From: a virus
Lineage: Duplodnaviria; Heunggongvirae; Uroviricota; Caudoviricetes
Length of the DNA stretch: 64,000 nucleotides
Strand: one strand, 5' to 3'
Virus record (IMG/VR): IMGVR_UViG_3300021431_002946
Coordinates: 353,291 to 417,290 of that record
Part shown: positions 32,060 through 35,564 of the stretch, in pieces
Layout of the letters: every line of letters begins with the position of its first letter
Numbering within the stretch: the first letter of the stretch is position 1
Position numbers and translations under genes: made by a program
Notes under the pieces: generated by a model
What the model was told of the DNA's origin: nothing
Databases searched by the model: none
What the model saw: only the letters and a program-made list of their open reading frames with translations

Positions 32060-33370
32060 ATGGATTTAGTACAAAAGAATAGAGAAATGCTTTTGGCTGG
32101 TAAATATAATATATCAGACACAAGGCAATTGTCTAGAATTGCAAGTCTTAAAGAACCAAATGATTATGACTTGTATTTAATTGCATGCGCATTATGTAAT
32201 TATGATATTCCAGAAATAGTAGAAGTTCAAGATTTAAGAATGAAATATTTTACTATTACTAAGAACTCAGGTCTTGATTATTCTCATGTACCTAGTGATT
32301 ATGGTAATATTGAAACAAAATTAAAGTGCACAAATACTGGACGTATAAACAATTATGGTTTATATGAATATGAAATTAATGTAAATGATAGAGATTTAGT
32401 TTCTGATCTTTGGGAATATAAGAGCAGAGATTGTCTTAAGTATGTTGATAATAAGAATGCAGATAAGATTGTTATTTCAATTAGTAAAAATCAGTTACAA
32501 AATTTTCAAAATATGCTTGATAAATTGAATATTTCATATAATAAGAAAAATCTTGAGGAAGGTATTATATATACAAATAAATCGACACAAAAATTAATTG
32601 ATATAAATAGATTAAGCCCACCTTGGGAACCTAAAGATTACCAAATAGAGGACGCTACTGCAATTCTCAAAACCAAAAGAAAATTAATAGGCCATGAGAT
32701 GGGATGTATATTTGGAGACGCAATTGTTTCTATAAAAGAAAACAATAATTATCAAAATATTACTTTGGCTGAATTATTTAATAAGTTTAATGAAAATTCA
32801 AATATTTATATTGAATCATTTGATATAAATCAATTTAAATATATGAAAATTAAAAATGTATTAGATAAAGGTAAGCAAAAAGTATTACAAATAAAAACAA
32901 CTAATAATTCTCTTATTTGTACATTTGATCATGAAATTTTAACAATGCGTGGTTGGGTAGAAGCACAAAATTTAACTACAAATGATTTAGTATATGTAAA
33001 AAATGAAAATACTAATTGTGAAAAAGTTATTGAAATTACAAAATTAAATGAAGAAAAGACTGTATATGATGTAGTAATTGACAGTCTTGATGTACATAAT
33101 TTTGTTGCAAATAATATTGTAGTACATAATTGTGGAAAAACATTTATAAGTATTTTAGTTGGTGAAAGTATAGGCGATTCTAAAAATGTAACATATCATA
33201 CAACAGATAATTTAAATTATGATGATATTGTTATTACAGACAAAGGACCTTTACCTATTGGAAAAATTGTAGAAGAAAATATTGATTGTAAAGTTAAAGT
33301 AATTAAAAATGGTAAAGAAACATTTGTAAATATTTTAGATCGAAAGTGTATAGAAGAAGATGATTTGTAA
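32060..33370 (+). CDS. SNF2-like helicase, N-terminal fragment (with mini-intein and intein-like tail)
   Basis: PKDYQ Q-motif, GHEMG|intein|CGKT Walker A. Confidence 0.85.
   Translation: [436 protein letters not shown]
32705..33130 (+). mobile_element. 142-aa cis mini-intein in the helicase Walker A (no endonuclease)
   Basis: C1 (CIFGD), block B TFDH, block F VYDVV..HNFVAN, VVHN followed by Cys+1. Confidence 0.93.
33209..33370 (+). other. degenerate split-intein N-like segment
   Basis: [29 protein letters not shown] resembles the DnaE intein N-terminus [30 protein letters not shown]; Asn at the C1 position; no TxxH. Confidence 0.65.
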
Positions 33371-34274
33371 TATTTGCAAAAAAGATTTTAAATCTAATAG
33401 AAGTTTAGGTATTCATATTGTTAGTACACATAATATGACTACTAAACAATATTATGATTTATATCTTAAAAAAGAAAATGAAGGTGCTTGTTTAAATTGC
33501 AATAAGCCTACTCAATATAGAAATATTACAAAAGGATATAGATTATTTTGTTCAAAAAATTGTTGCAATACTTCTGACTATCATATAACAAATATGCAAA
33601 ATACAATTATTTCAAGATATGGTGGAATGGGTACTGCATCTAATATTATAAATAATAAAATAAAGAAAACAAATATTCAGAAATATGGATCTGAAAATGT
33701 ATATTCGTCTGAATATGGAAAAAATAAAATAAAACAAAGTAATCTTGAACATTTTGGAGTGGAATGTAGTTTACAATCTCCTATAGTACGAGATAAAATT
33801 ATACAGACGTCTTTAAAAAAGTATAATACTACAAATCCTGGAAATTGTAGACAAGGCAGACAAAAAGCTGCATATACAAGAAGAGCAAATGATAATGATT
33901 CATCTTGGGAAGATTATTTTGAAATACAGTTAAAACAAAGAAATATTACATATAAAAAGAGATATAATTCTGATTCACGTTATCCATTTATGTGTGATTT
34001 TTATTTACCTAATTCAGATACTTTTATTGAGATAAATGGTTATTGGAGTCATGGTAAACATTGGTTTAATAAAAATTCAAAAGAAGATGTAAAAAAGTTA
34101 TCTAGTTGGATTGAAAAAGCAAATAATGGTCATAAACAATATAAAAATGCTATTAACGTTTGGACAATTAAAGATGTTAAAAAGCTACAAACTGCAAAGA
34201 AAAATAAATTAAATTATATTGTAATTTGGAAATTTGAAGATATTGATAAATTTTTTAGTAATTTGAAAGGATAA
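33360..34274 (+). CDS. free-standing homing endonuclease (C2H2 finger + PD-(D/E)xK/Vsr-like domain)
   Basis: CNIC..HIVSTH, CLNC, YPFMCDFYLP..FIEINGYWSH. Confidence 0.8.
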   Translation: MICNICKKDFKSNRSLGIHIVSTHNMTTKQYYDLYLKKENEGACLNCNKPTQYRNITKGYRLFCSKNCCNTSDYHITNMQNTIISRYGGMGTASNIINNKIKKTNIQKYGSENVYSSEYGKNKIKQSNLEHFGVECSLQSPIVRDKIIQTSLKKYNTTNPGNCRQGRQKAAYTRRANDNDSSWEDYFEIQLKQRNITYKKRYNSDSRYPFMCDFYLPNSDTFIEINGYWSHGKHWFNKNSKEDVKKLSSWIEKANNGHKQYKNAINVWTIKDVKKLQTAKKNKLNYIVIWKFEDIDKFFSNLKG

Positions 34275-35564
34275 ATGTATATGAAAAAATATTCATTAAC
34301 TTTAGAAAATGCAGATACATTTAGTGGAAATAAATTTTTACATATACCTAAATTAGTTATTTGCCCTGAATCACTTAGATTAAATTGGAAGAAAGAAATT
34401 AGTACAATTTGTCCAAGTGATGATGTTCAGGTTCTTTATAGTAAAGATTCACCTCATTTTGGTAAAGACTGGACAATTATTGGTTATAAATCTGTTCAAA
34501 AGTTTTTACCTAATCTTAAACATTTTAAATGTATATTTGTTGATGAATGTCAGAATTGTAAATCTGTAAATAATTGGGGTAAGCCTACTTCAAAGAGAGC
34601 AGCTGCAATTATGGAATTAGCACAATCAACAGATCATTTATATTTATTATCAGGAACACCTCTTCCTTCGCATAATAAGGATTTATTTAATATTCTCAAA
34701 ATGTTAAAGTGTGAAAAATATGACTTTAATAGTCAATGGGCATTCAAGCATTTTGCAGATAAATTTTGTGATCCAAAGGAAACACCTTTTGGTAAAGATT
34801 ATAGTGGTAGTTCAAATTCTGCAGAATTACATGAATTATTACAATCCTTAATGGTTAGAAGATTAAGAAAAGACGTATTGCCTAATCTTAAGAAACAAAG
34901 ACAATTTATTCCTATTGAACCTGCATTTAAAAAGGATTATAAGGATATTGAAAAGAGATTATATACTCAAGGTAATGGTGATACTTACATGGCTCTTGCT
35001 ATGACAGGCAGACAATTACTTAGTCAGTATAAATTTGATGCTGCAGTTGAATTAGCTGATAGTTTATTAAATAGTGATGAAAGTGTAGTTATTGTAACTA
35101 ACTTTGTTGAAACTGCAGATAGACTTAAGGAATATTATGGAGATCAAGCTTGTGAAATTCGTGGTGGTATGACTGATAAACAGAAAGAAAAAGCTAAAGA
35201 GCAATTTCAAAATAAAGAAAAGACAGTTTGTATTTTGAATATGGCTGCTGGCGGAGTTGGTATTACACTTACTGCTGCGCATGCAATGGTTGTTGTAGAT
35301 TATGCTTGGATTCCAGCTGATATGATTCAGGTTGAAGATAGAATTTGTAGAACAGGTCAAACTGAAGAATATTGTATATATTATTATGTATATTGTGATA
35401 ATGCAATTTTTGATAATGTATTTATCAATATGCTTACTGAAAAATCAGAAAATATTGATTTAGTAGTAGATAATGCAAAAAATACTTTTAATTTGATTAA
35501 AGAAAAAGAGAAGTCTGATACTTATATTAAGGCTCTCAAAGCATATGTTAAGAAAGCAGCATAA
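34275..35564 (+). CDS. SNF2-like helicase, C-terminal fragment
   Basis: own RBS [56 protein letters not shown]. Confidence 0.9.
   Translation: [429 protein letters not shown]
34281..34343 (+). other. degenerate intein C-like segment
   Basis: [21 protein letters not shown] resembles blocks F/G (YdlxVe..hnF..N..lxH) but has no terminal Asn or +1 nucleophile. Confidence 0.45.

Follow-up and report, generated by a model that had tools for sequence, protein, structure and literature searches.

The window considered here is a stretch of 64,000 nucleotides (nt) from the virus record IMGVR_UViG_3300021431_002946 (Caudoviricetes). At positions 32060-35564, it carries a gene for an SNF2 helicase that is broken into two open reading frames (ORFs) around a free-standing endonuclease gene and that bears intein-like sequence at the break. 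The source is a complete 467-kb virus record with terminal repeats, of which the window covers positions 353291-417290, and the SNF2 helicase of this genome is encoded only here, as two ORFs, no other copy being present. The only named phages with DNA similarity to the genome are the Prevotella Lak megaphages, and ruminant-gut metagenomes contain DNA near-identical to the window; the phage is a Lak-like megaphage from the gut. Three ORFs lie head to tail on the plus strand, as do all the features of the locus described below: the helicase N ORF (32060-33370, 436 amino acids (aa)), the endonuclease ORF (33360-34274, 304 aa), and the helicase C ORF (34275-35564, 429 aa). The N and endonuclease ORFs share 11 nt, and the TAA stop of the endonuclease adjoins the ATG of the C ORF with no gap. 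The ATG at 34281 is probably the true start of the C ORF because homologous C pieces begin with MKKYSL. Recoding of TAG is known from Lak phages. An alternative code in which TAG is read as Gln was rejected as an explanation of the arrangement, since it leaves the ORFs unchanged and all three stops are TAA.

The N ORF opens with the first helicase piece (aa 1-215, 32060-32704), running from the N-terminal domain to the sequence ...LIGHEMG of Walker A. This piece shares 93% identity with residues 1-224 of P0004, the closest relative, a contiguous 636-aa protein that is 93% identical to the helicase of the window. Beyond an insertion in the Walker A loop, the remainder of Walker A and its helix form a short exon piece (33131-33175) that aligns to contiguous homologues. 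It is followed by an 11-residue linker (33176-33208) without counterpart in P0004 or in inteins, and then by a 53-residue tail (33209-33370, with its TAA stop at 33368-33370). On the other side of the endonuclease, the C ORF starts with a head of 23 residues (34275-34343), which is absent from contiguous homologues. The C piece of the helicase (34344-35564) then resumes at motif Ia (IPKLVICP) and continues via DECQ, SGTP, and QVEDR to the end, matching PF00176 (E 7.7e-18) and PF00271 (E 5e-15), which correspond to SNF2 motifs Ia to VI.

In contiguous homologues, the site of the break reads GESI(K/D/N)|(M/I/T)PKLVICP, and the spacing from GKT to motif Ia is 17 residues in 89 of the 95 contiguous clusters. 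Compared with P0004 and these clusters, the N piece is longer by 64 residues (11 of linker and 53 of tail after GESIG) and the C piece by 23. At the DNA level, positions 32704-34343 of the window stand in place of 46 bp in the contiguous allele L010. The ORF map and the contiguous homologues together establish that the helicase is fractured around an endonuclease, as the original prediction had it. Both broken ends bear unique tails that are missing in uninterrupted homologues, which is the feature that characterizes the split NrdA gene of phage Aeh1.

The insertion in the Walker A loop is a mini-intein of 142 residues (aa 216-357, 32705-33130), apparently intact. It matches PF14890 (E 5e-12, 46.3 bits against a cut-off of 35.8), and C1, TFDH, VVHN, and the +1 Cys can be read from its sequence, so that it displays the features of a class 1 mini-intein. 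It is absent from P0004 and L010. N fragments exist with and without it, from which it follows that the mini-intein and the sequences at the break are independent of each other. In intein-free alleles, Walker A mostly reads GCGKT, with a few GLGKT, GTGKT, GAGKT, or GVGKT. The Cys serving as +1 nucleophile of the Walker A intein (33131-33133 in the window) is thus widespread in empty sites, where it may be the footprint of past inteins or a ready homing site.

The tail of the N ORF (aa 384-436, NLNYDD...EEDDL) is of intein origin. When it is compared by phmmer with all PDB sequences, the DnaE inteins (Npu/Ssp) are the only significant matches (best E 1.3e-4); LPIGKIVE is identical in the alignment and Asn384 stands opposite Cys1. 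A profile built from 26 tails reaches E 4.6e-6 to the same inteins. Against 1.84 billion representative proteins, this profile gives 20 matches, six of which are helicase N fragments, and the others that were read are mostly N-termini of intact ligase or helicase inteins (e.g., P0155, P0156, and P0157) with the pattern C-L/F-x-Y...TDKGxLPIGxIVExxIDCKV. Among these 1.84 billion representatives, the profile search found no helicase whose GESIx|xPKLVICP site holds a complete intein. The tail modelled alone by AlphaFold2 (AF2) adopts a strand-strand-helix-strand-strand fold whose core has a predicted local distance difference test (pLDDT) score of 73-81. All of the top 17 PDB matches of this model in Foldseek are DnaE inteins (probability 0.75-0.99, root-mean-square deviation 2.7-3.0 Å over 42 columns), with E-values of 0.04-0.6 that are weak given so short a model. 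In an exhaustive VIA-align search, a Z of at least 2 is obtained for only three of 48,161 chains, all of them DnaE inteins (Z 3.3, 2.8, and 2.7). The sequence and its predicted fold make it practically certain that the tail represents the opening ~50 residues, the conserved first third, of an intein whose sequence is DnaE-like, and thereby the first symmetry unit of a Hint fold.

What this remnant lacks is the chemistry of splicing. In none of the 32 alleles read does a Cys or Ser nucleophile occupy intein position 1, where N, E, or L is found instead (Asn384 in the window), and all tails end 61-65 residues after GESIx, ahead of block B, with neither His nor TxxH. The original prediction had noticed the likeness to the DnaE N-terminus with its identical LPIGKIVE, the Asn at the C1 position, and the missing TxxH, and these observations are borne out. 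Among five features of a class 1 split intein, only the N-terminal Hint sequence and fold is present; the position-1 Cys/Ser, the TxxH of block B, blocks F/G with (H)N, and the +1 Cys/Ser/Thr are all wanting, and the region therefore cannot be filed as an intein. On these sequence grounds, the tail fails to qualify as a functional intein and canonical splicing is excluded. Elsewhere in the phage genome, neither another copy of the tail nor another PF14890 intein was found.

Two metagenomic proteins carry related sequences in other contexts. In the 125-aa protein P0152, an unrelated, Cys-rich N-terminus with a GCLCGA motif precedes the helicase tail, which is present from ...IFNKEDVIYRALDNLEYND onward. 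The fusion is either a chimera of the assembly or the outcome of genuine recombination that brought the tail into another gene. P0154 (292 aa) consists in part of five tandem repeats of ~26 aa (NLQYND.xVTxESPLPxSGxVE) that match the tail profile with E 1.7e-10; although no intein surrounds them, they are a repetitive relative of the N-terminal hairpin of inteins or a mimic of it.

The head of the C ORF displays a motif KYSLxL that is invariant in the 14 aligned heads. Its placement and this pattern resemble block F of inteins (xYDLxV), a likeness of pattern only. The last residue of the head is not conserved (H, Q, N, or S). At +1, the window has I, whereas M, I, E, V, or L follows the 13 other heads. 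The C fragment of the window has neither the terminal Asn nor a +1 nucleophile, as had been read originally.

Between the two pieces lies the free-standing homing endonuclease (33360-34274), in which Pfam, PHROG, and AF2 together delineate a zinc-finger N-terminus, DUF7487 helical repeats, and a Vsr-like nuclease C-terminus. It matches PF24308 (DUF7487, E 1.6e-11) and PHROG 3339, annotated 'homing endonuclease' (E 1.4e-12), and its AF2 model, obtained from an alignment of 49 sequences, has a pLDDT of 92.4. The four best PDB matches of the model are 1cw0, 3r3p_B, 1vsr, and 3r3p_A, corresponding to Escherichia coli Vsr and the catalytic domain of I-Bth0305I (probability 0.98-0.99); the E-values of 0.05-0.13 for these are weak, albeit clearly above the rows that follow. 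D213, E224, H231, and D243 are invariant among 49 homologues and D272 is nearly so, their match to residues of Vsr or I-Bth0305I being deduced from the order of motifs. By its model, the endonuclease is of the Vsr-like kind, a family first described in fractured genes (PMC2677866). Three more relatives of this endonuclease are found in the same genome (L002, G000:C1:252061-252909; L003, G000:C1:151588-152055; L004, window 26120-26338). One is a full-length free-standing copy with 38% identity and long ORF-free flanks, another has 410 aa with more DUF7487 repeats and a Vsr/DUF559-like end, and the third is a 120-aa ORF similar to the zinc-finger N-terminus only.

The arrangement is not restricted to this phage. 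The same head and tail are found in 13 other C-fragment clusters and 27 other N-fragment clusters, so the fracture is not a private accident, and the distribution among homologues proposed as a check reveals the arrangement in these clusters, ten fractured loci of which have a readable neighbourhood. The endonuclease is present in seven of these ten loci, and the tail and head are intact in all ten. In the remaining three, it is reduced to a 42-aa stump (L011), replaced by a 182-nt spacer (L006), or missing altogether, with the helicase ORFs overlapping by ATGA (L008, 4 nt). The stump of L011 (2813-2941) retains only the C2H2-like zinc finger of the endonuclease, and this locus is a snapshot of endonuclease decay with intact helicase tails.

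A FastTree phylogeny of cluster representatives, computed for the distal core of the helicase, requires at least 11 state changes for the 14 fractured rows, and five pairs of a fractured and a contiguous helicase are near-identical. The cassette formed by tail, endonuclease, and head is thus scattered over the helicase tree, and hence mobile. The DNA of the window and that of the contiguous allele L010 are 95-99% identical up to ~32603 and outside the surroundings of the insert, whereas identity falls to 72% and 77% in the 100-nt stretches that border the insert and amounts to 88-91% over a further ~200 nt. At the protein level, the identity of the C piece to P0004 rises from 69% in the first 35 residues to 86% and then to 98% beyond residue 100. 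Such a divergence of the flanks is the pattern expected if the cassette and some flanking exon had been moved by recombination between diverged alleles, and either of the two alleles may be the recombinant one.

Mobility alone would be compatible with tails that do nothing. They could be functionless leftovers of a recent spread of the cassette, or their DNA could serve as homing flank or expression signal, and the exon sequence that moves along with the cassette would agree with this. The pattern of selection, however, speaks for the protein. Proportions of nonsynonymous (pN) and synonymous (pS) differences were calculated over six loci according to Nei-Gojobori, as simple proportions with saturated synonymous sites. 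For 46 codons of the tail, pN is only 0.12 and pS 0.555 (pN/pS 0.22), whereas the 11-codon linker immediately before it has a pN of 0.50 and a pS of 0.49 (pN/pS 1.02). The helicase core gives a pN of 0.29 and a pS of 0.58 (pN/pS 0.51, a ratio inflated by one misaligned locus, L009), and the KYSLxL of the head a pN of 0.07 and a pS of 0.40 (pN/pS 0.17). The tail is under purifying selection and the linker is neutral. Since the synonymous divergence of the tail equals that of the core, the tail is conserved as a protein, neither as DNA nor by virtue of a recent spread. As the tails also stay intact in the three loci where the endonuclease is lost or truncated, functionless leftovers are quite improbable. 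Two-piece genes of such a kind in huge phages are functional genes, not pseudogenes.

A second possibility is that the break is repaired covalently, through an unconventional protein splicing, through RNA splicing, or through ribosomal bypassing or frameshifting across the break. Inteins of atypical kinds are known, among them those of classes 2 and 3 and those with a C-terminal Gln or Asp, and three of the 14 heads do end in Asn. Nonetheless, no allele has a nucleophile at position 1 or +1, block B is missing, and the C-terminal residue is unconserved. Regarding RNA splicing, an Rfam scan of 31800-35800 at E ≤ 10 returned three chance-level matches and no intron family, in keeping with the earlier remark that the locus has no room for a group I intron core. 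The ORFs abut or overlap, down to the 4-nt overlap of L008, and selection at the amino-acid level implies that the tail is translated and matters as a protein. A repair by any of these routes is highly improbable, and covalent repair of whatever kind very probably does not take place. Metatranscriptome contigs from four runs (X17-X20) cover 31800-35800 in patches, none spanning 33370 or 34275, and carry no information on splicing or expression. A single RNA 'joint' among them was discarded as spurious, being made of 21-nt sides and 557 foreign letters.

If the tails are maintained as proteins and no peptide bond is restored, they may act by holding the two pieces together. ESMFold2 was used to co-fold the tail, as a 65-aa sequence with alignment A1, and the head, as a 34-aa sequence with alignment A2, both alignments having been made for this analysis. 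The three runs scored 0.45, 0.41, and 0.56 (median 0.45), the best of three controls reaching 0.01, for a verdict of 'weak support'; they agree in at least 48% of contacts, and the pLDDT of the partner is at least 46. In the calibration of this method, 58 of 80 solved complexes and two of 110 mismatched pairs attained the mark, and scores of 0.60 or under comprise seven of the 80 solved complexes and both mismatches that passed; these counts apply only roughly here, own alignments having been used. The co-fold modestly raises the odds that tail and head bind, without amounting to proof.

The reading favoured here, with a probability of about 0.6, is that of a fractured SNF2 helicase with a mobile cassette of tail, Vsr-like endonuclease, and head, in which only a non-catalytic remnant is left of the intein and the two halves are clasped together non-covalently. 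In such a scheme, the N piece would be translated and its intact Walker A mini-intein would splice itself out in cis, restoring the P-loop, while the C piece would be translated separately from the same transcript. Both pieces would then complete one RecA-like lobe non-covalently, the 53-residue tail and the ~20-residue head forming a clasp in which no peptide bond is made. From sequence statistics and predictions, on which every statement about function made here is based, we infer both the binding of tail to head and its necessity for helicase function. Because the termini of a Hint fold meet, a complex of unit 1 and head would keep the ends of the break, GESIG and IPKLVICP, side by side where a loop leads from the P-loop helix to the motif Ia strand, and the last N-extein residue would be set beside the first C-extein residue, as in an intein precursor. 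The endonuclease would spread the cassette into uninterrupted helicase alleles, and the tails would keep the invaded gene working, and so be retained after the endonuclease has decayed.

The modular construction of Hint folds indicates what would have been lost. The gp41-1 intein is composed of unit 1 (residues 3-52) and unit 2 (59-110), which are related by a C2 axis, together with beta4 and the strands beta8-beta9 (bioRxiv 10.1101/546465), and a review describes natural IntN fragments as partly pre-folded ahead of their encounter with IntC (PMC11766414). The helicase tail corresponds to unit 1, and the cassette plausibly retains the two last strands along with it. The missing part would be beta4 and the second unit, a clean modular deletion, with the head located where beta8-beta9 would be.

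Several points weigh against a clasp of this kind. The head, whether searched as a single sequence or as profile A3, has no intein match in the PDB, and its profile compared with the inteins collected here gives only noise, of at most 3 bits and without favouring C-termini. The block F/G-like character claimed for the head by the original prediction consequently stands as a resemblance of pattern and finds no profile support in either collection, and the profile check then suggested turns out positive for the tail, through the DnaE inteins, and negative for the head. A likeness between CGxKF of the head and the Walker A CGKTF (0.6 bits) is not meaningful. The head may instead be a captured or a de novo sequence. 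The co-fold passes in its weak band, with the partner's own fold uncertain. We know of no described precedent for half a Hint fold as a stable module, and a split RecA lobe might reassemble unaided. Finally, in Aeh1 NrdA, which is the sole analogue to have been tested, the tails are essential for activity and not for the association of fragments (PMC3045599).

This last precedent leads to a third alternative, in which the tails are required without pairing with each other: the tail would pack on the body of the helicase, repair the cut loop, or mediate a higher-order assembly, and in the latter version tail could pair with tail in imitation of the two-unit symmetry of Hint. The case for it is that the Aeh1 tails are dispensable for heterodimer formation and needed for the next assembly step (PMC3045599), that the head is devoid of intein similarity, that the tail alone is predicted to fold, and that the Hint fold is built of two superimposable units (bioRxiv 10.1101/546465). 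Conversely, the tail and head co-fold at 0.41-0.56 against 0.00-0.01 for the controls, though in the weak band, the invariant KYSLxL is found right at the start of the head, where the strand of block F would be, and both tails accompany each other in ten of ten loci. All versions taken together, this alternative is unlikely. The earlier view of a dead intein remnant stapling the helicase halves together is partly supported, its intein origin and loss of catalysis more firmly than its stapling.

Beyond the clasp itself, the cassette of tail, endonuclease, and head may tentatively be regarded, at slightly less than even odds, as a distinct type of selfish element, a 'splicing-free intein' that offsets its own insertion by non-covalent complementation instead of splicing. 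If so, half a Hint fold would on its own suffice as a heterodimerisation module of ~50 + ~20 residues, and the element would be a still-extant stage in the way inteins decay or arise. Confirmation of the clasp would mean that sequence of intein origin can be domesticated to serve assembly in a purely structural way and that one pseudo-symmetry unit of Hint can stand alone, and it would provide a small natural pair of association tags.

As for the surroundings of the locus, no terminator-like site was found between the three ORFs, and promoter-like sites there are not above chance. The gene upstream (29223-31328) encodes a homologue of the type II topoisomerase A subunit, PF00521 matching its orthologues in L005 and L010, and the gene order topoisomerase - small ORF - helicase is kept in relatives. 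Mobile nucleases are also encountered within a few kb of the helicase in relatives, namely RRXRR/HNH genes and an IS605 OrfB/TnpB (Cas12f-like), at 6562-6882 and 8059-9105 of L007 and at 1441-2445 of L006.

Known systems close to this one include fractured genes with active split inteins as well as split genes whose parts are brought together by unexplained tails. In the literature searched, no natural case of an intein remnant that has lost splicing and yet is conserved where a gene is broken was found. In the fractured genes described by Dassa in 2009 (PMC2677866), as in the present locus, a phage gene of DNA metabolism is cut into two ORFs at a conserved site with intein-type sequence at the break, a free-standing Vsr-like endonuclease is nested between ORFs that overlap or abut, and some alleles have no endonuclease. 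The helicase shares with them the two-ORF enzyme gene and the endonuclease, and not the complete splicing-competent intein. Indeed, whereas their intein halves are complete (~90-100 aa and ~35-40 aa), have retained Cys1 and block B together with the terminal Asn and the +1 nucleophile, and trans-splice, only ~53 and ~20 residues remain here and every catalytic position is lost in all alleles.

The naturally split DnaE inteins (Npu/Ssp; 4lx3, 4kl5, and 1zd7) are the best match of the tail, over residues 1 to ~50 with LPIGKIVE and the I(D/E)C(K/T)V strand. The tail differs from them in its host gene and insertion site, in the loss of Cys1 and of the remaining half of IntN, and in having no detectable IntC. 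Likewise, the predicted nuclease domain resembles I-Bth0305I and the EDxHD endonucleases (PMC3239194; 3r3p), with invariant Asp, Glu, and His in the expected order, whereas the DNA-binding part, predicted to combine an N-terminal zinc finger with DUF7487 helical repeats, is its own.

The split of NrdA-a/NrdA-b by mobE in phage Aeh1 (PMC3045599) is comparable in another respect. There too, a free-standing endonuclease interrupts the gene, each fragment bears a unique tail that came into being with the mobE insertion, and reassembly proceeds without RNA or protein splicing. Crona et al. (2011) considered a degenerate intein as a possible source of these tails, a speculation that they could not substantiate (PMC3045599). 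The Aeh1 tails are short, charged, and biochemically essential, and they have no recognisable intein similarity, whereas the ancestry of the N tail of the helicase is demonstrable from its sequence. The helicase thus adds to this series a remnant that is devoid of splicing chemistry and yet is under purifying selection, moves horizontally with an endonuclease, and outlives it.

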